A stretch of 64,000 bases of DNA from an uncultured Acidobacteriota bacterium (lineage in GTDB: Bacteria; Acidobacteriota; Blastocatellia; Pyrinomonadales; Pyrinomonadaceae): positions 608,698 through 672,697 of the forward strand of contig CAVRHB010000007.1 in NCBI GenBank assembly GCA_963720905.1, read 5' to 3'. Shown here in pieces: positions 4,130 to 62,780 of the stretch (positions are counted from its first letter, which is position 1; each line of letters begins with the position of its first letter). A program made the position numbers and the translations under genes. The notes under the pieces are model-generated. The model had not been told where the DNA came from. It worked only from the letters and a program-made list of their open reading frames with translations, and did no database searches.

Positions 4130-4658
4130 TTATTTAGGAATCGATAGTGCAGCAGCGATCATCACATTATAACCTTCGAATTTATTCCGACCGTTGAGGA
4201 AATCTAGTTCAACGACAAAATTCAGACCGACAACCTCTCCGCCGACGCTTTCGACTAGATCCACAACGGCTCGTGCAGTTCCGCCGGTTGCGAGCAGATC
4301 ATCAACGATCAAAACTTTATGACCTTCGCCGACCGCGTCTTTGTGCATCTCCAATGTGTCTGTTCCGTATTCGAGTTCATACGAGATCGAAACGCATTCG
4401 GCCGGCAAGCTTTTTAGGTTTGCGAACAGGGATAAAACCTGTCCCGAGTTCGATCGCCAGAGGCGCACCAAAAATAAAGCCGCGAGATTCGACGCCGATG
4501 ACCGTATCTATCTGCAATCCCTCGTTCAATTCTTTTAAGAGACGCACCGATTCGCGCAAGCCTTCGGCGTCTTTCAAAAGTGTTGTTATGTCGTAAAAAT
4601 TAATGCCCGGTTTTGGAAAATCGGGGACTTCGCGAATAAGTTTTTTTAAATTGTCCAT
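4130..4658 (-). pseudogene. apt: Adenine phosphoribosyltransferase, split by a frameshift at the T5 run 4411-4415 as sequenced.
   Basis: The N-terminal ORF reads [28 protein letters not shown]...[30 protein letters not shown]. The C-terminal ORF resumes [26 protein letters not shown]...[14 protein letters not shown], which contains the PRPP motif. Confidence 0.9.
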
Positions 4659-4670
4659 TTTCTGAAAATA

Positions 4671-4943
4671 TTATCGTTCGATCCTAAACGTTGAATAATG
4701 TTTGTCGGGGTCAAGAACTATTTCCTCAATTTCATCGACCCGCGAATATCTCGGTCCGGCGGAAATATCATCTCGAAATGCGTCGACCGCTTTCGTGCTT
4801 CCCTGAACCAACGCTTCAACCCGGCCGTCCTCGAGATTTTTAACATAACCACTCACCTGATGCCGGGCCGCAACACGCTGCGTAAAAAATCGGAAACCAA
4901 CACCTTGAACCATCCCTCTGATAAAATATTTGCGTGCGATCAT
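4671..4943 (-). CDS. acyP: Acylphosphatase.
   Basis: 90 aa. Contains the GMVQGVGFRFFT motif and GYVKNLEDGRVEALVQG. Confidence 0.85.
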   Translation of the reverse strand: MIARKYFIRGMVQGVGFRFFTQRVAARHQVSGYVKNLEDGRVEALVQGSTKAVDAFRDDISAGPRYSRVDEIEEIVLDPDKHYSTFRIER

Positions 4944-5921: not shown

Positions 5922-6723
5922 GCATCGTTTCGCCATCGATCAAGTGGTTCAGAGGCGGATGACCGCCGCCGAACATTGGCGATGTTTTGATGCCTGTAGC
6001 AACAAATCTTTTTGCAATTCCTATCGCATTCGAAAGGGTTTTGCCATTCGCAACGCAAGCTGTAATGGCTGCTGCGAGCGTACAGCCGGTTCCGTGTGTT
6101 GCGATTGAATCGATAAATTCGCCGTCGAAAATCTCAGTGCCTTTTTGAGTGAAAAGAAGATCGCGCATTCGTTCACTTTCCATATGTCCGCCTTTTATCA
6201 GAACGGCAGTCGCACCCATAGATAATATCTGTCGCCCAGCCGTCTCTATGTCTACTTTGGTTTTAATTGCGATTCCGGTGATCCGTTCTGCTTCAGGGAT
6301 ATTCGGTGTAACGACGATGGCAAGCGGAAATAGTTCCTCAACCAGTGATCTTAGAGCAGCATCATCGATCAGATCATATCCGGAAGTTGATCTAACAACC
6401 GGATCGACTATCAAATTCAAAAACTTTCTTTCTTTCAATATCGCTGCGGTTTCACGGATAACCTCTTCGGTAGGAAGCATTCCGGTCTTTGCGGCATCAA
6501 CCTGCAGGTCGTCAAATATCGGAACAAGCTGCCCGCGAATCGTCTTTGCCGATTGGCTCTCTGAGCCGAAAACCTCCGCGGTATTCTGAAACGTGATCGA
6601 AGAAACCGCCGCCGCTCCGTAACAGCCAAATGCGGCAAACGTTTTCAGGTCAGCGATAATCCCCGCCCCGCCCGAAGGATCAAGCCCGGCTATCGTCAAG
6701 CAAATTTTTTGATCTCGTTTCAT
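5905..6723 (-). CDS. thiD: Hydroxymethylpyrimidine/phosphomethylpyrimidine kinase.
   Basis: The start MKRDQKICLTIAGLDPSGGAGIIADLKTF was chosen at 6723. Motifs VDPVVRSTSGYDLI, TPNIPEAE, VLIKGGH and THGTGCTLAAAI are present. Confidence 0.85.
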   Translation of the reverse strand: MKRDQKICLTIAGLDPSGGAGIIADLKTFAAFGCYGAAAVSSITFQNTAEVFGSESQSAKTIRGQLVPIFDDLQVDAAKTGMLPTEEVIRETAAILKERKFLNLIVDPVVRSTSGYDLIDDAALRSLVEELFPLAIVVTPNIPEAERITGIAIKTKVDIETAGRQILSMGATAVLIKGGHMESERMRDLLFTQKGTEIFDGEFIDSIATHGTGCTLAAAITACVANGKTLSNAIGIAKRFVATGIKTSPMFGGGHPPLNHLIDGETMLTEPE

Positions 6724-7339
6724 TACAAATTCTATACAGAGTTGCCTTGTCTTCCAAAGATCGGATCGCCGCAAAACCCACCGCACCAGATTCTAATAAA
6801 TTTCGCCAATTGCTTTCGTCGATCCCGCCCAAAGCCAAAAGCGGAAACGCGTCAAGTTCTTTAGCGATCGACAAAAACTTTTCCGGCCCGATCGGTTCCC
6901 CTTTTCCCGGTGTTGAAAAAACCGGCCCTAGCACAGCAAGATCGGCTCCGTTCTTTTTTGCGGTCGCAGCTTCTTGCTGACTATGCGTCGAAACTCCGAT
7001 CAAAAAGCCATCCGGAACAGATCGCCGAACCACATCTGCTGGGATCGAATTCGCCGTCAAATGGACTCCGTCCGCACCAGCGGCAACCGCTATATCAAAT
7101 CTATCATTTACGAGGATCGCTGTCCGCGAACCGCGAGCAATATCAACCACAGCTATCGCGAGTTCGACAACCTGCGACGCGGTCAAATTCTTCTCGCGTA
7201 TCTGAACCATCGAAACACCCGCTTCGACAGCTGCAGAAATATGCTCGATCAATTCTATTTTGTTTTTATTGAAATTTGCGGGCGTCGAGTGGCCCGGCGT
7301 GATTAGATAAACGATCGGCTGCCGAAGCGGCGTTTTCAC
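6680..7339 (-). CDS. thiE: Thiamine-phosphate synthase.
   Basis: A GTG start at 7339 overlaps the upstream stop (GTGA). Motifs VYLITPG...VSMVQIREK...ILVNDRFDIAVAAGADGVHL...IGVSTH...DLAVLGPVFSTPGK...LALGGI are present. Confidence 0.85.
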   Translation of the reverse strand: MKTPLRQPIVYLITPGHSTPANFNKNKIELIEHISAAVEAGVSMVQIREKNLTASQVVELAIAVVDIARGSRTAILVNDRFDIAVAAGADGVHLTANSIPADVVRRSVPDGFLIGVSTHSQQEAATAKKNGADLAVLGPVFSTPGKGEPIGPEKFLSIAKELDAFPLLALGGIDESNWRNLLESGAVGFAAIRSLEDKATLYRICNETRSKNLLDDSRA

Positions 7340-46100: not shown

Positions 46101-46373
46101 TGTCTATTTGTTGCCGGATGAGCTCGATCAGTTGGATTTGCAACCGAATCAATTTCGCGCCAATATTAGCATAGGTCTCCGCAATCGCTGAGTTTTTTGT
46201 CAAAGTCAGAACCGCCTGTGTCAGCGGAGTCGGTCGCACTTTGGACGACATAAAATTTCGACGTTGTTGCACAAATAAAACTATTTACTATACACGCAAG
46301 TTATGTTATATTTTGCTTGGGTCGATGTTCGCACCGACCAAGGAATAGGCGGGTTTTTGAAAATTTAGCGCGA

Positions 46374-46405
46374 GTGGGACACTGGGACAGCGGGACAGTG
46401 GGACA
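46374..46405 (+). repeat. Tandem octamer repeat, 4 x NNGGGACA.
   Basis: The units GTGGGACA CTGGGACA GCGGGACA GTGGGACA are contiguous. The array is intergenic, 119 nt upstream of ispH. Confidence 0.9.
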
Positions 46406-46420
46406 GATCGGAAGAAAAGG

Positions 46421-47443: not shown

Positions 47444-48344
47444 TTATTCAGGAATGATCAATTCTTGCCCAACGCTGATCGCACTCGGGCTCGATAAACG
47501 ATCGCGGTTTGCGTCGTAGATCCTCAGGTAACCGTTCGCCGTTCCGTAAAAACGGACACTGATCTTTCCAAGCGTATCGCCCGGTTGAACAATGTAGGTT
47601 CTTGATCCGCCATTGTTGGTCGCATCCGGATATTCGGTTCGTTCGGTCCTTTCGCCAAATCGCGGAAGCGAAATTCCTTGATTCAGAACAACGCCGAATT
47701 CGGTTCCGGATTTTACCTCTGCATTTTCGCCTTTGGTAAAACGTTCGCCAAGCAAACCTGCTCCGGCTCCGATCAAGCCGCCGATCAAAGCACCTTTGCC
47801 GCCGCCGATCGCGGCTCCGAGAACCGCGCCGCCTGCGCCGCCGCCGCCGATAAAGATGATCTTGCGATGCTTCATCTTATCGCCCGAAGCCGTGCCTTCG
47901 TTGTCGCTCTTCGCATCATCAGCATCAAGATCGGTAAGTGAGCCGTTGATGCGACGCGATGTGCCGTTCGGCAGATCAAGCTTAATAAAGCTTACATCGA
48001 TCTGGCCCGGATCTCCCCCTTTTTTGGCTGGGGTCACCGAATCGATCCGGCCCGTGACCTTGCTGCTTTGAGGTATGACGATCACACCGTTGTTCGAATA
48101 AACGTCATCGGTGACGGTTGCGGTAAAAGTATCGCCAACCTGCGAAGCTTTCGAATTGATCGTTTGATCGATACGAACACGCAATCGGGTACCGCTTGCA
48201 ACGTTAAAGCTTTGCCGCACGTGTCGGAGTCGTGCGTCTTATCGTGGGTTTTCGCTGAGCATCGATATTTATCGCCGTTAGCGAAACCATCAATGCGAAA
48301 AAAAGCGAAAGAACGCCCAAATTCCTAATATTCTTCATAATCAT
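47444..48344 (-). pseudogene. Secreted glycine-zipper plus LysM domain protein. The N-terminal signal peptide is out of frame: one shift in the A7 run 48298-48304 and a second near 48225.
   Basis: An AGGAG RBS precedes MIMKNIRNLGVLSLFF. The frame then shifts to ALMVSLTAINIDAQRKPT, and shifts again to the listed ORF (RQSFNVASGTRLRV...). The glycine zipper reads IGGGGAGGAVLGAAIGGGKGALIGGLIGAGAG. The C-terminal LysM domain reads YIVQPGDTLGKISVRFYG...IYDANRDRL. Confidence 0.65.
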
Positions 48345-59433: not shown

Positions 59434-59970
59434 CTAAGCCTTTGGTTTTTCTATCTCCGATCTTAGATCAGAAGGTAAACCTTGCCAGAGGTCCGGATGG
59501 GATTCGACGAGGCGTGCTATATCAGCAAGATCTTTAATGCGTTTACTTTGCCGTCGTTTCGGGTCACTCCAGGCTCTAATTTTTCCCGTCATTGTATCCT
59601 CAAGGGACGCAACACGCATCAAAATTCCATGAACATCCGCGGCTATACCTCGCGAAGCGAAATCACGATACATATCTTCGGTTGTGAGCTGTATTGCTAC
59701 TTTGGACTTTCCCTTGAAATTGATCGACCACTCAAATGTTTCCGGAACAAAGCCAACCTCTTCCAGAGCCGACACGGCTTTTTCGATCGAATCTGCCGCG
59801 ACAACAAAATCTACATCTTGTGTAACCATTTGCTCCGCCGCCCAATGGTTTACCGCAACACCGCCGATCGCACACCACAAAATATCGGCCCGCTCCAGCG
59901 CATTTATAAAACGCATAACATCATCGGTACCGCCGTGTGTTTGCCAGTCGTAGAATTGTTTCTCTGTCAT
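59434..59970 (-). CDS. Nucleotidyltransferase-fold protein (pol-beta superfamily), inserted between moaD and moaE.
   Basis: 178 aa. Contains WCAIGGVAVNHW...QDVDFVV (a G[GS]-x-DxD-like NTase core) and a C-terminal RIKDLADIARLV helix. Confidence 0.55.
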   Translation of the reverse strand: MTEKQFYDWQTHGGTDDVMRFINALERADILWCAIGGVAVNHWAAEQMVTQDVDFVVAADSIEKAVSALEEVGFVPETFEWSINFKGKSKVAIQLTTEDMYRDFASRGIAADVHGILMRVASLEDTMTGKIRAWSDPKRRQSKRIKDLADIARLVESHPDLWQGLPSDLRSEIEKPKA

Positions 59971-60298: not shown

Positions 60299-61072
60299 CT
60301 ACTTTATCGCCCCCGCGATCGGGCTTGATGCTGATGCGTATAGGCGTTTGGGCATACGTCCGGCGAGGTATGCGAGGCGTCCGGCGCGGACGGCGTAGTT
60401 CATCGCTTCGGCCATTTGTGCGGCGTTGGGCGATTCGGCGATGGCGGTGTTCATCAGGATCGCGTCGGCGCCGAGTTCCATCGCTATCGCGGCATCCGAA
60501 GGCACGCCGACTCCGGCATCGACAATAATAACGGCATCCGGAAGCTGCTCGCGGATTATGCGGATGTTCGACGGATTTTGGATTCCCATACCCGAACCGA
60601 TCGGCGCGGCCAATGGCATCACGGCGGCGCAACCGGCATCCAGAAGCTTTTTCGCCATGATGAGATCGTCCGAAAAATATGGCAGCACGACAAAGCCTTC
60701 TTTTACCAAGACTTTTGCGGCTTCGAGCGTTTGCTCGTTATCCGGCAAAAGCGTGACAGGATCGCCGATGACCTCGAGCTTTATCCATTCCGTTTCCAAA
60801 GCTTCGCGGGCGAGCCGTGCGGTTCTGATCGCGTGGTCGGCGTCATAGCAGCCGGCCGTATTCGGCAGGATCTTCATTTCCGGATCGAGGTGATCGAGGA
60901 AAGATTCCGTCGCACGATCAAGCGGCACGCGGTTTACCGCAACCGTCACCATCTCCGCACCCGAAGCCGTATGCGCCGCCTTCATCTCTTCATTCGAACG
61001 ATATTTTCCGGTCCCGATTATCAACCGCGAACCAAAACTCTTGCCGTGTAGTGTAAATATGTCTGTGATCAT
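60299..61072 (-). CDS. thiG: Thiazole synthase.
   Basis: The start is [24 protein letters not shown]. Contains VTVAVNRV...ILPNTAGC...IKLEVIGD...VLPY...[12 protein letters not shown]...IVDAGVG. Confidence 0.9.
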
Positions 61073-61159
61073 TTGTTTAATTTTCACGCAAACCGCGCTA
61101 TAAAGCAACGGAAGAGCAAGCGATAGGAAACCGGCTTCTTGGATCTGTTCGCATTTAGT

Positions 61160-61215
61160 GTTTGTTCAAGGTTTGTCCATGGCTTGTCCAAAGCTTGTTC
61201 AGGGTCTGTTCAGAG
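61160..61215 (+). repeat. Five direct repeats at an exact 11-bp period (iteron-like or winged-helix-regulator-like array).
   Basis: TGTYCA cores start at 61163, 61174, 61185, 61196 and 61207. The units are gtTTGTTCAag, gtTTGTCCAtg, gcTTGTCCAaa, gcTTGTTCAgg and gtCTGTTCAga. Confidence 0.85.
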
Positions 61216-61297
61216 GTTTTGTGAACGCGTAAGTTATTGGTAACACTGAGTATAGGAGTTTGTCTTCGATCTTTTTGGTTTGTTTTAAAATAAAGTG

Positions 61298-61325
61298 TTG
61301 ACATTTCTTTCATTTCATCTATAAT
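61298..61325 (+). promoter_or_regulatory. Consensus sigma-70-type promoter upstream of the RepA-like ATPase gene.
   Basis: TTGACA (61298-61303), a 16-nt spacer, then TATAAT (61320-61325). The ATG is at 61356. Confidence 0.6.
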
Positions 61326-61355
61326 ACATTGTGTCATACAACGTATGGCTGAATT

Positions 61356-62678
61356 ATGTCAACGAATGTTACAGAAGTCAAGAAAATAGATGCGGCCGTT
61401 TGGCGGGCGAAAGATCGTATTGCGGAGCTAAAGGCAGCGAAACCGGCGGACAGGCTGTTCGATGAATTTTGGCGCGAAGGCGAGCTTGCGTTGTTTTTCG
61501 GCCCGACCGGAAAAGGCAAAAGCGTTTTGGCCGTACAGATCGCAGATGCTCTCGCACGCGGAACGGCGATGCACGGATTTGCGATGCCAAAGCGTCGTAA
61601 AAAGGTTCTGTATGTCGATCTGGCACATTCGGACGCTCAATTTCTGGAGCGATACAGAAAGTATAAATTTGCTCACGAACTTTTTCGCGGCCAGCCGGAC
61701 GAAGACGTCGATCTTTTCGAATGGATCAAAGCGGTTGTCGAAACGAATGATATTGAGGTCGTCATCGTGGACGACCTTGCGGCGGTAAAGCAGACGAACG
61801 AAGGCGTCCGCGAAACTCTTTTGCTTATGCGGAATTTAAAACGATTGTGCCGCAGCCGGGGACTTTCTGTGCTTGCTATCTCCGATGCATCCGAGCCAAA
61901 GAACAAACGCGAAAGCGAGAAGGATCTGAATACATCGAAGGTTCTGTGCCGTGTCGCCGATAGTGTTTTTTCGATCGGAAGCGCGTCCTATCAGGGCGAC
62001 CGGCGGCGGATCGCTCAGACGAAATCACGCAGCGGCAAACTTTTCTGGGATCTGGATAATTCTCCGAAAGGCGATGTTAAAAGATTCGATTCGGGCCTGC
62101 TCGGGTTCGAATTCGACGAACGTTTTGCGGCAAAGCCGGACAAGGAAAAATGCCGTTTGATCAATGATATTCATTGGCGGCACGAAGACGGACAAACATT
62201 TCGGGCGATCGCAAAAGAGCTCGGCATGCCGACATCGACTTTGTTCTGTCTCTCCAAAAAATGGACGCCGGCAATGGGCGGCAAACCAGAACCGCCAAAG
62301 ATAACCTATGAACCGCCGTTCTACGACGACCCCGAACCGCAGTATTCCGAAGAGTCCAGTATCTGGCTTGACATCGAGCGCGAACAAGCCGAACGCCGGG
62401 CCAACGGCGGCGAAGATGTCGTTGCGGTCGAGGAGGCCGAGCCTGATACACGCCCGCCAAAGCCGAGTTCGATCTATGACCTCGAGCTGGATTTCGACAG
62501 TTACGCCGGCAAGATATACGTCGAATCGCGCGACGAATTTTCCCGCAAACCGACCGTCTGGTACAAACCCGCAGATTCGGGCCCGATAACCAAATGCACC
62601 CGCAAACACGGCTACATAAACGTCGAAGTCTTCAAAACCGATCCAATAACAGAGACATTCGCCAGAGCCGGCCCGTGA
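61356..62678 (+). CDS. RepA/AAA_25-like RecA-fold ATPase with an internal HTH and a C-terminal region of unknown function.
   Basis: Walker A is LALFFGPTGKGKSVLAVQIADALARG. Contains VLYVDLAHSD. Walker B is VVIVDDLAAV. Contains SVLAISDA. The HTH-like stretch is DGQTFRAIAKELGMPTSTLFCLSKKW. A Pro/Glu-rich linker is present. Confidence 0.65.
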   Translation: MSTNVTEVKKIDAAVWRAKDRIAELKAAKPADRLFDEFWREGELALFFGPTGKGKSVLAVQIADALARGTAMHGFAMPKRRKKVLYVDLAHSDAQFLERYRKYKFAHELFRGQPDEDVDLFEWIKAVVETNDIEVVIVDDLAAVKQTNEGVRETLLLMRNLKRLCRSRGLSVLAISDASEPKNKRESEKDLNTSKVLCRVADSVFSIGSASYQGDRRRIAQTKSRSGKLFWDLDNSPKGDVKRFDSGLLGFEFDERFAAKPDKEKCRLINDIHWRHEDGQTFRAIAKELGMPTSTLFCLSKKWTPAMGGKPEPPKITYEPPFYDDPEPQYSEESSIWLDIEREQAERRANGGEDVVAVEEAEPDTRPPKPSSIYDLELDFDSYAGKIYVESRDEFSRKPTVWYKPADSGPITKCTRKHGYINVEVFKTDPITETFARAGP

Positions 62679-62780
62679 TATTATAGGGTTTTCGTTTGAA
62701 AATTTGCCCGACAACCTGCCTTGGCGGTGGATCAGGTTCAGGCGTGCAAAAAAATATCGGATATGGAATAAAGGCGAGTT

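Follow-up and report, generated by a model that had tools for sequence, protein, structure and literature searches.

Phased repeat arrays that dock oligomeric DNA-binding proteins are already well known, with iterons, parC and DnaA boxes as examples. DnaA is an ATPase with a C-terminal HTH that oligomerises on sites of one orientation, spaced by roughly a helical turn, and it also represses its own promoter. In iteron plasmid replicons, specificity diverges between co-resident copies. SaPI/PICI Rep, SV40 large T antigen and papillomavirus E1 carry a sequence-specific DNA-binding domain on a ring helicase, which assembles on short repeats beside an AT-rich region that overlaps a promoter. Convergent sigma-70 promoters with mutual interference and overlapping 5' ends are found in IS10 (pIN/pOUT) and coliphage 186 (pR/pL). 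In the parC/ParR system of plasmid R1 and in tubC/TubR, phased direct repeats lie beside the promoter of the binding protein's operon; the protein binds them cooperatively, and they serve as its operator as well (PMC2241845; PMC6009700).

The locus described here was found in a window of 64,000 nucleotides, meaning the whole stretch of DNA that was analysed, and consists of the features below. The domain layout of the protein was derived from Pfam, protein alignment, an AF2 model and Foldseek.

61145..61151, plus strand: partial copy CTGTTCG, read directly, displaced by 17 bp from the array phase
61160..61214, plus strand: five direct 11-bp units with the core TGTYCA at 61163, 61174, 61185, 61196 and 61207
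61221..61226, minus strand: inverted copy GTGAAC (reverse complement of GTTCAC), read directly
61227..61297, no strand: AT-rich spacer of 71 bp (GC 0.32 against 0.48 for the window), ending in an A-rich UP-like tract
61229..61239, plus strand: conserved box GTAAGTTATTG immediately behind the inverted copy; consensus in the family G[TCG]AA[GA][TC]N[AG]TTG
61298..61325, plus strand: sense promoter of the ATPase gene, TTGACA-16-TATAAT, 12/12 consensus matches
61323..61348, no strand: two conserved, operator-like palindromes at the -10/transcription start
61353..61381, minus strand: antisense promoter TTGACT-17-CATAAT, facing the sense promoter
61356..62678, plus strand: gene for a 440-aa protein that joins a RecA-fold (KaiC/DnaB-like) ATPase and an HTH
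aa 35-230 of the protein: RecA-fold ATPase, AAA_25
between ATPase and HTH: linker GLLGFEFDERF
aa 263-301: three-helix HTH, then an acidic spacer
aa 372-428: C-terminal five-strand beta module

The R1 centromere is similar in repeat layout, its sets likewise consisting of five 11-bp direct repeats beside a promoter. ParR, however, is a small RHH dimer with a separate motor ATPase, ParM, whereas here a RecA-fold ATPase-HTH fusion is encoded by a single gene. Moreover, two sets flank the parC promoter, whereas here one array with an inverted copy lies about 70-135 bp upstream, on a chromosome. Iteron replicons (pPS10, pSC101, R6K, F) share with the locus helically phased direct repeats, an inverted repeat that separates array and gene, an AT-rich stretch and a cognate gene downstream. 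Their units, in contrast, measure 17-22 bp and lie about two helical turns apart, against 11 bp here, and their initiator is a Rep_3 winged-helix protein, whereas Pfam found no Rep_3 domain in the 440-aa protein, which is itself an ATPase. They are also extrachromosomal or integrative and carry one or more DnaA boxes, whereas this locus is chromosomal and vertically inherited, and no DnaA-box-like site with up to one mismatch occurs in 61073-61355.

DnaA resembles the window protein in joining an ATPase to an HTH, with oligomerisation on phased sites being predicted here, but it is an AAA+ rather than a RecA-fold protein, the 9-mer boxes that it reads share a single universal specificity, and it is an essential protein with one gene copy; no relationship between the two sequences was found. 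The initiator-helicases belong to SF3 or other types and to mobile or viral genomes, whereas the window protein is a candidate helicase by fold similarity. The IS10 and 186 switches differ in that the predicted start sites of the sense and antisense promoters here (about 61332 on the plus and 61346 on the minus strand) lie only about 14 bp apart, and the phased array and the ATPase-HTH protein have no counterpart there.

The nearest relatives outside Acidobacteriota are ATPases that combine AAA_25 with an HTH and are encoded by mobilisable transposons of Bacteroidota (Tn4555, NBU1, MTnBf8 type); they have been annotated only (PMC13597742). One protein of this type (L085; AAA_25 E = 9.6e-17, HTH_23 E = 7.6e-7) aligned to the window protein in BLASTP with 31% identity (E = 9e-27) over aa 34-296, which covers ATPase and HTH. 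The Bacteroidota proteins have the same order of AAA_25 and homeodomain-like HTH but lack the C-terminal beta module. Their genes are flanked by an excisionase-like HTH gene on one side and a primase-like gene on the other, within integrase/Mob elements, unlike the Acidobacterial loci, and no period-11 array was found upstream of them. In MTnBf8, the Zn-ribbon/DUF6371 neighbour is a Toprim primase.

The repeat array and its module in Acidobacteriota

The initial annotation had described five TGTYCA hexamers at an exact 11-bp period, which was confirmed by the sequence and by TRF (61160-61219, period 11, 5.4 copies). The units (GTTTGTTCAAG, GTTTGTCCATG, GCTTGTCCAAA, GCTTGTTCAGG and GTCTGTTCAGA) are imperfect, with 73% matches. 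TGTYCA alone occurs at background frequency in the window (53 observed, 47.9 expected). The spaced pair TGTYCA-N5-TGTYCA occurs four times, always inside the array, and not once in 100 dinucleotide-preserving shuffles, and the array is the sole period-11 chain of at least four units within the 64 kb. Counted from the T of TGTYCA, the units begin at -135, -124, -113, -102 and -91 relative to the -35 (-134 to -90 if counted from the G). The distances given earlier are also correct, at 91-140 nt to the thiG ATG (61072) and 86-135 nt to the -35 (61298), and a 60-aa shadow ORF on the minus strand (61155-61337) is, as stated, the only ORF that overlaps.

Both additional copies near the array were found where they had been reported. 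The partial copy CTGTTC at 61145-61150 is present, though 17 bp off the array phase; a close relative (L001) has it as well, but it is not a general feature of the family. The inverted GTGAAC is a conserved family feature and forms an imperfect palindrome with the last direct copy. A degenerate copy proposed downstream of the gene (GGTTCAGG at 62735) did not survive, since it is at chance level, with the octamer occurring 3 times and GTTCA 131 times in the window. The box GTAAGTTATTG was recognised by eye at about 25 loci of differing motif classes and at two arrays that stand without the gene (L161, L098). It is a candidate for a DNA-bending or IHF-like site.

A common layout is shared by about 30 homologous loci from MAGs of Pyrinomonadaceae and Chloracidobacterium, thiG being absent from most of them. 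It consists of 2-5 direct copies spaced by one helical turn, a single inverted copy, the box, an AT-rich spacer and a near-consensus promoter. The earlier proposal, in which an iteron-like array belongs with the RepA-like ATPase-HTH gene beside it, is thereby upheld, as array, inverted copy and promoter recur upstream of homologues at these loci. The co-occurrence of array and homologue, which had been suggested as a check in related genomes, is present, and the motif shifts with the protein. At L003 and more than 30 further loci thiG is missing, yet phased repeats, inverted copy and promoter precede the homologue. Of the promoter-upstream regions, 36% contain period-11 chains of at least three hexamers, compared with 0.5% of 660 control windows, while other periods stayed near background, the largest being period 10 (6% vs 0.2%). 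The period is 11 throughout the family and rarely 12.

The geometry between array and promoter is fixed to a few bp across the family. In 27 of 29 loci the inverted copy lies -89 to -98 from the -10 start (-94 in the window), and the last direct copy lies mostly at -111 to -118 from it, regardless of motif sequence. The register of about -113, -102 and -91 relative to the -35 recurs in loci with other motifs. Deviant layouts were seen at L007, L032, L034 and L036, and family-type arrays without a downstream ATPase gene at L161 and L098. A metagenome scan for four TGTYC at period 11 gave at least 120 rows, and among the matches listed the family ATPase never appears; many other iteron systems show this pattern too, so that the frequency of orphan family-type arrays is not measurable by it. 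The stand-alone HTH adjoining two arrays (L153, L144) has no detectable homology to the HTH of the ATPase.

A functional link between array and thiG is not borne out, as just 3 of about 42 Acidobacterial loci have thiG beside the module. Upstream neighbours are divergent and co-directional about equally often, and half of the loci have no divergent gene. On these sequence comparisons, the array is part of the module of the downstream gene and not of thiG. The whole seems to be a conserved single-gene module of soil Acidobacteria which apparently had not been described before, and no description of the protein family or module was found in the literature.

In the window, the ATPase gene is neighboured by thiG and yetF, and synteny with thiG and S55 was seen in three genomes. 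The contig measures 679 kb, and the locus is chromosomal and vertically inherited, with host-like composition. Among 40 Acidobacterial loci there are no conserved neighbour genes beyond shadow ORFs, and no primase, integrase or further mobile-element gene is conserved nearby. Neither circular contigs nor viral relatives of the module were found. An IS200-like Y1 transposase gene was observed downstream in 5 of the 40 loci. A TPP riboswitch (RF00059) or other known RNA before thiG was rejected, as there is no Rfam match, two tRNAs alone reaching the gathering score in the window. For the idea that the family is the initiator of Chloracidobacterium chromosome 2, the genome paper is silent on replication genes.

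Motif classes and the recognition helix

The repeat motifs fall into at least seven classes, which include TGTYCA, TGTCCGG, TGTCCCRC, TGTCCAC, GTTCCG and GTTTCA; one homologous locus (L013), for instance, carries TGTCCCAC, of another class than the TGTYCA of the window. Paralogues within one MAG also differ in class (L021 vs L023; L031 vs L034), and a syntenic orthologue whose ThiG is 90% identical (L004) shows TGTCCACACC with a period of 12. Identity in the recognition helix is 0.52 within motif classes vs 0.44 between them (permutation p = 0.0015, phylogeny being only partly controlled), and the identity of the ATPase is 0.47 both within and between classes. This comparison shows that the motif co-varies with the HTH recognition helix, with a modest effect, and indicates that specificity is encoded by the locus itself. 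The module offers predicted natural orthogonal protein/site pairs, in at least seven classes and paralogue-specific, as a tractable model for the divergence of DNA-recognition specificity.

The ATPase-HTH protein and its promoters

The AAA_25 match of the protein is above the Pfam gathering score (E = 3.7e-15, 56.5 bits vs a cut-off of 27). The HTH gave weak Pfam matches (HTH_SB, HTH_38, HTH_23), and Pfam gave no match to Sigma54_activat (PF00158). In the alignment, G49, G54, K55 and D139 never vary and S56 hardly does, with Walker A and B intact, and the QxR motif is invariant or nearly so across the family. Foldseek matched KaiC, DnaB, RadA and Twinkle at E values of about 1e-9 to 1e-10. From its conserved motifs and from the modelled fold, which is that of oligomeric RecA-fold ATPases, the ATPase looks active and oligomeric. 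The C-terminal module is modelled confidently (pLDDT 82), yet its best PDB fold match has E = 0.9. Three family proteins (L024, L027, L035) are without this module, and full arrays are retained at their loci. A PDB sequence search with the protein returned only weak RAD51/RecA matches and a marginal one to SpoIIID, and the defence-system libraries returned a weak P-loop match to mad8 and nothing else. PHROGs matches were to DnaB-like helicases and primase-helicases.

The sense promoter is kept at the nucleotide level in about 32 loci (nhmmer), whereas the spacer at 61227..61297 is conserved across the family in length but not in sequence. The first palindrome reads AATACA-T-TGTGTC (GATACA-N-TGTATC in the family) and the second TCATAC-AAC-GTATGG (CCATAC-AAC-GTATGG in the family). 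The antisense promoter reaches at least 10/12 consensus matches in 18 of 21 loci vs 1.5% of shuffles, with an offset of 34 nt in 12 of the 21 (range 29-38), and the predicted antisense transcript would run across the array toward thiG. RNAalifold gave no consensus RNA structure for the conserved leader, and single-sequence folds had a mean z of -1.0; the conservation of the leader is better explained by the antisense promoter and the DNA palindromes than by RNA structure. With its 12/12 sense promoter, operator-like palindromes and conserved antisense promoter, the region looks regulated. A sigma-54 enhancer was considered and rejected, as the best -24/-12 candidate lacks the GG, 9% of random windows do equally well and the promoter is of sigma-70 consensus.

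Judged from sequence, the repeats are most likely docking sites for the neighbouring ATPase-HTH protein and not a thiG or phosphate-regulon element. With moderate confidence, we further read the array as the distal portion of the region for control and assembly of the gene at 61356-62678, on which the protein would oligomerise and from which it would control the face-to-face promoters. The HTH would read the TGTYCA units, and a dimer would nucleate on the palindrome-like pair that the inverted copy makes with the final direct one. More protomers could then join on the same DNA face, one for each helical turn, to build an ATP-dependent oligomer. This assembly would sit at a fixed site 90-135 bp upstream of the -35 and act across the AT-rich, probably bent spacer on the face-to-face promoter pair, most likely repressing its own near-consensus promoter. 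The binding and the arrangement of the oligomer are inferred here, as are the direction in which the promoters are regulated and what the ATPase does biologically.

Several features of the family count against this docking model, the few deviant layouts and the modest size of the co-variation among them. The number of direct copies varies from 2 to 5, which implies no fixed stoichiometry, and six sites per hexamer is ruled out by the 3 to 6 copies per locus. The palindromes at the -10 are conserved across motif classes, so that a second reader would be needed, which could be a host factor or a different region of the protein, and the main operator might be something other than the array. The existence of the orphan arrays L161 and L098 implies that the sites are not strictly self-regulatory. 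What appears to be new is a stand-alone chromosomal RecA-fold ATPase-HTH gene with its own co-evolving array at a base-pair-fixed distance from face-to-face promoters, in a module that is widespread in a major yet little-studied soil phylum. The module also gives a handle on the ATPase-HTH proteins of resistance-carrying mobilisable transposons of Bacteroides.

Other readings of the locus

An origin-like loading site is rather unlikely, but comes next in probability. In such a site, an initiator-helicase positioned by the repeats would melt the AT-rich spacer, the module would be a domesticated mobile-element replication unit, and the antisense transcript might help opening or priming. The fold matches to the replicative helicases DnaB and Twinkle and also to RadA, together with the PHROGs matches, point in this direction, as do the 71-bp spacer of GC 0.32 next to the array and the similar 11-bp TGTCC iterons within phage O-like replication genes beside dnaB (L120, L154). 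Paralogues in the same genome differ in specificity, as incompatibility avoidance predicts. In addition, the closest relatives of the same architecture adjoin a Zn-ribbon/DUF6371 protein in Bacteroides mobilisable transposons (PMC13597742). The chromosomal, syntenic location and the host-like composition argue against an origin, as do the intergenic region without a DnaA box, the lack of a conserved primase, integrase or mobile-element gene nearby, and searches in which neither a viral relative nor a circular contig was found. The spacing to the promoter is kept to the base pair without sequence conservation, which suggests a transcription-linked geometry, and an unregulated additional chromosomal origin would be expected to be harmful.

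A more specific version, which we regard as improbable, holds that these are self-specific chromosomal initiator-helicase/iteron modules, vertically inherited and domesticated from mobile-element replication modules, each loading at its own array and opening the AT-rich spacer. The face-to-face promoter switch would then serve as control, with the antisense transcript crossing the array. Such modules would be conditional extra origins of replication or local amplification, or helicase entry sites, to which the orphan arrays would add further ones. Were helicase loading indeed the role of the array, this would bear on whether bacterial chromosomes can carry additional regulated origins.

It is quite improbable that the array is a centromere-like or chromosome-organising site, on which the oligomer would form a segregation or compaction handle with autoregulation as a by-product. 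The idea draws on parC of plasmid R1, whose sets of five 11-bp direct repeats by a promoter are operator and centromere at once (PMC2241845), on the comparable TubR/tubC (PMC6009700) and on the arrays that exist without a gene. The module, however, has no partner motor or adaptor gene, with no ParM, ParA or TubZ nearby, and the ATPase and the DNA-binding domain form one polypeptide here. We know of no partition system with an ATPase fused to a DNA-binding domain. The single chromosomal copy with its variable neighbours likewise suggests no obvious cargo.

Direct repeats spaced by 11 bp are typical of OmpR/PhoB and SARP sites, and the array lies between two divergent genes, both of which would suit a regulator unlinked to the locus, for example a winged-helix protein of the OmpR/PhoB type, that binds the array and controls thiG, the ATPase gene or both. 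Such a regulator is nevertheless very unlikely. A Pho box is 18 bp long, with two CTGTCAT direct repeats and an AT-rich 4-bp spacer, and it replaces or overlaps the -35, whereas the array does neither, lying 86-135 bp upstream of a perfect TTGACA. The Pho-box reading of the initial annotation fails on the motif as well, since the best intergenic match has 7 mismatches, lies outside the array and is equalled by 83% of random windows. Its suggested comparison of thiG upstream regions also goes against a Pho box, as the motif is not shared between the window and the syntenic L004. Motif and period both differ at that locus, where the site of a host regulator should be conserved, and the array accompanies the ATPase gene into unrelated contexts.

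Equally hard to credit is an element acting at the RNA level, in which the repeats within the antisense transcript, in this window a potential 5' leader of thiG, would be a phased protein-binding RNA motif. The conserved antisense promoter would indeed transcribe across the array, and into thiG in the window, L001 and L004; in the window no TPP riboswitch lies before thiG. The HTH domain and the conservation of the inverted copy, however, suggest that double-stranded DNA is what is recognised; a divergent gene is missing from half of the loci, and short-leader loci without a detectable antisense promoter retain their arrays.

Functionless tandem duplication by replication slippage is least probable of all and effectively refuted by the comparative data, for although short tandem repeats do originate in this way and the units are imperfect, layout, phase, inverted copy and position are kept in about 30 diverged loci with differing units, and the core hexamer is constant within each array while its flanks vary.

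Phased repeats and their gene

Five copies of TGTYCA precede the ATPase-HTH gene at an exact 11-bp period, as the initial annotation had proposed; the sequence, Tandem Repeats Finder (61160-61219, period 11, 5.4 copies) and shuffling agree on this. Taken singly, the hexamer occurs in the window at background level (53 observed vs 47.9 expected). TGTYCA-N5-TGTYCA occurs four times, always within the array, and in none of 100 shuffles, and the 64-kb window contains no second chain of at least four units with a period of 10 or 11. The inverted GTGAAC at 61221-61226 was also found in the sequence. A partial CTGTTC at 61145 exists but is 17 bp out of phase with the array, and GGTTCAGG, put forward as a degenerate downstream copy, is at chance level (three occurrences in the window). 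Other short tandem repeats in the window are an 8-bp unit, AGTGGGAC, at 46373-46406 (4.2 copies) and a period-12 chain at 47803-47851.

60299-61072, minus strand: thiG (Pfam ThiG, E = 9e-105)
61163, 61174, 61185, 61196 and 61207, plus strand: starts of the TGTYCA cores, read from the sequence
Five repeat units in order, read from the sequence: GTTTGTTCAAG, GTTTGTCCATG, GCTTGTCCAAA, GCTTGTTCAGG, GTCTGTTCAGA
61356-62678, plus strand: ATPase-HTH gene, 440 aa (Pfam AAA_25, E = 3.7e-15; weak HTH matches at aa 270-303)

A protein search returned about 170 relatives of the window protein, nearly all from Pyrinomonadaceae or other Acidobacteriota MAGs and on long contigs. The thiG neighbour is retained in the homologous loci L001 (68% identity) and L004 (51%) and is absent from L003 (49%). 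Phased repeats occur in each of the three, about 90-135 bp upstream of a promoter that hardly varies.

L001: four TGTYCA units at period 11, with inverted TTGAAC
L003: four TGTCCGG units at period 11, with inverted CGGACA
L004, 4783-4818: three TG(T/C)CCACACC units at period 12

Scanning GTDB species genomes added 39 loci from Acidobacteria, together with a group of more distant relatives in Bacteroidota; most of the Acidobacterial loci have two to five direct copies, one inverted copy and the common promoter. It is to the ATPase gene that the array belongs, a tie already suspected from the window, since the repeats persist in L003 without thiG and likewise in most Acidobacterial loci. Variant layouts include five to six GGAAACC units at a 12-bp period in opposite orientation (L007, ~4690-4760), arrays in inverted orientation only (L034 and L036) and an array between promoter and start codon (L032).

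The gene upstream of the module diverges from it in 17 loci and is co-directional with it in 14, and the proximity of thiG is therefore incidental. No Rfam family matched the thiG/ATPase intergenic region, and there is therefore no TPP riboswitch. In the window, L001 and L004, thiG and the module remain together while the neighbourhood is in flux. An AbiEii-like nucleotidyltransferase gene lies between moaE and moaD in the window (59434-59970; Pfam AbiEii, E = 4.6e-9; PADLOC AbiEii); the syntenic L001 lacks it, carrying PLD and endo/exonuclease-phosphatase genes instead, in the interval from moaD to thiG, and in L004 an NgoMIV restriction-modification pair follows the module. Directly upstream of the thiG start, AATTTTCACGCAAACCG (61079-61095) is conserved in the same three, and many loci have tracts like TTTCACGCAAA or TTTTCAAAAAAC ahead of the -35 in the ATPase promoter; the AATTTTCACGCAAACCG-type tract may be a lineage-typical promoter-proximal element. 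Five of 40 loci have an IS200-like Y1 transposase ORF (Pfam Y1_Tnp, E = 4e-24), in either orientation, just downstream of the ATPase gene (L003, at 6498-6941, L007, L023, L034 and L036), which may be coincidence or a real association.

Fixed geometry and opposed promoters

An nhmmer profile of promoter and leader matched about 32 loci and served as the anchor for upstream measurements. At least three hexamers were chained at period 11 in 36% of the 260-nt upstream regions vs 0.5% of 660 control windows, and other periods were near background, the largest being period 10 (6% vs 0.2%). When each locus is scored with its own core motif, the inverted copy falls at -89 to -98 from the -10 start in 27 of 29 loci, and the last direct copy usually falls at -111 to -118. 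A further proximal copy, at -44 to -50, occurs in nine loci. The window fits this geometry exactly (direct copies -156 to -112, inverted copy -94). Across homologous loci the array-promoter spacer keeps its length but not its sequence; the window's own spacer is AT-rich (GC 0.32 vs 0.48 for the window as a whole). In most loci the inverted copy is followed by a box, G[TCG]AA[GA][TC]N[AG]TTG (61229-61239 in the window), with a possible likeness to the CAA-N4-TTR core of IHF sites.

61298-61325, plus strand: sigma-70 sense promoter, TTGACA-16-TATAAT, 12/12
61323-61348: two palindromes conserved in every motif class (type of repeat core), GATACA-N-TGTATC overlying the -10 and CCATAC-AAC-GTATGG where the transcript begins
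61381 to 61353, minus strand: antisense sigma-70-type promoter, TTGACT-17-CATAAT, overlapping the ATPase start codon and opposing the sense promoter

The family form of the antisense promoter, TTGAC(A/T)-17-CATAAT, reaches at least 10/12 in 18 of 21 loci vs 1.5% of shuffles; 12 of these 21 loci share an offset of 34 nt, and the range is 29-38. It accounts for the strong nucleotide conservation of the leader and first codons; that conserved stretch is non-coding in several loci. RNA structure in the leader was not supported on testing. Given the divergent/co-directional split of upstream neighbours, it is not dedicated to a divergent gene. The predicted start sites, ~61332 (plus) and ~61346 (minus), are face-to-face and about 14 bp apart, so two RNA polymerases should exclude each other. 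Both palindromes look like operators, and their putative reader must be something conserved, in contrast to the variable array. Neither a sigma-54 promoter nor a DnaA box turned up when looked for explicitly.

Locus-encoded specificity

Motif classes across loci include TGTYCA, TGTCCGG, TGTCCCRC, TGTCCAC, GTTCCG, GTTTCA and TGTTCGA, among others, and paralogues within one MAG can differ (L021 GTTTCA vs L023 GTTCCG; L031 GTCCAC vs L034 GTCCCA). Among three syntenic loci, identity to the window is 90-93% for ThiG, 70-90% for the S55 peptidase, 70% for MoaE, 58% for the PAS regulator and 51-68% for the ATPase, which is consistent with vertical descent in place, protein and site diverging together. 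Alignment A1 divides the protein as follows.

aa 35-230: ATPase; Walker A G49, G54 and K55 invariant and S56 nearly so; Walker B D139 invariant; Q221/R223
Linker: GLLGFEFDERF
aa 263-301: three-helix HTH
Between HTH and beta module: variable acidic spacer
aa 372-428: conserved beta module

Identity in the recognition helix (aa 291-303) is 0.52 within vs 0.44 between motif classes (permutation p = 0.0015). In the same comparison the ATPase domain stands at 0.47 both ways, no effect is seen in the linker, and that of the C-terminal module is only marginal (p = 0.06). Because helix identity tracks motif class, and because full arrays persist in loci whose short proteins lack the C-terminal module (L024, L027, L035), the HTH is the likely reader of the repeats. 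The AF2 model (pLDDT 76) matches KaiC CI, DnaB, RadA and Twinkle (E ~1e-9 to 1e-10), all of them oligomeric RecA-fold ATPases; the C-terminal module modelled alone (pLDDT 82) had no fold match in the PDB.

Proposed role and related systems

On balance, the sequence comparisons lean towards the adjacent ATPase-HTH protein recognising the repeats as its cognate sites. It would assemble on a single DNA face, nucleating where the last direct copy pairs with the inverted one; the complex, in its fixed position, would control the face-to-face promoters, with the protein's own promoter most likely being repressed. With this predicted pairing, the module amounts to a genuine protein/site system, conserved and open to testing, in a phylum that has been little studied; a literature search found no paper describing it.

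The main rival, an origin-like helicase-loading site from a mobile-element replication module, is unlikely, though it deserves weight. PHROGs matches of the protein are DnaB-like helicases and primase-helicases. Its only plasmid or phage matches are Bacteroides "plasmids", circular forms of Tn4555-type cfxA mobilisable transposons, whose ATPase likewise has AAA_25 and HTH_23 (31% identity, E = 9e-27) and is flanked by an excisionase-like gene and a Zn-ribbon/DUF6371 gene. MTnBf8 is annotated with a similar order of HTH, AAA, Toprim primase and Mob (PMC13597742). Unlike these relatives, the Acidobacterial module has no conserved neighbour gene, no viral relative found, no circular contig among its carriers and host-like composition, and no period-11 arrays were found upstream of the Bacteroidota relatives. 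A centromere-like role is a good deal less probable; the closest known system in form is parC of plasmid R1, whose 11-bp iterons come in sets of five and double as operator and centromere (PMC2241845). Iteron replicons and DnaA are closest in logic and the Bacteroidota transposon proteins in ancestry, yet in each case, parC included, the module lacks features that define the family.

Binding by an unlinked OmpR/PhoB-type regulator, the Pho-box reading that the initial annotation offered beside the iteron one, is highly improbable: the explicit Pho-box test was negative, and the site of a host regulator would be expected to stay constant, unlike the array motif. An RNA-level role of the repeats is equally hard to credit. 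A functionless duplication is the least credible reading.

Scanning metagenomes for four TGTYC units at period 11 gave at least 120 matches. None of the matches listed has the family ATPase, so such arrays are a generic form used by other systems. At L120 (3240-3290) and L154 (9594-9650), 11-bp TGTCC iterons lie inside phage O-like replication genes adjoining dnaB; at L153 (~4195-4250) and L144 (~1938-1985, oriented), an 11-bp TGTCC array immediately precedes a small HTH ORF that has a MobF-like relaxase on one side and a tyrosine integrase on the other. The family-type layout of four to six direct copies, an inverted copy and a GCAAGTCATT-type box recurs at L161 (1507-1580), L098 (900-975) and L163 (2082-2150). 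The L163 contig stops too close to its array to show what follows; L161 and L098 have no ATPase gene downstream, and orphan family-type arrays thus exist.
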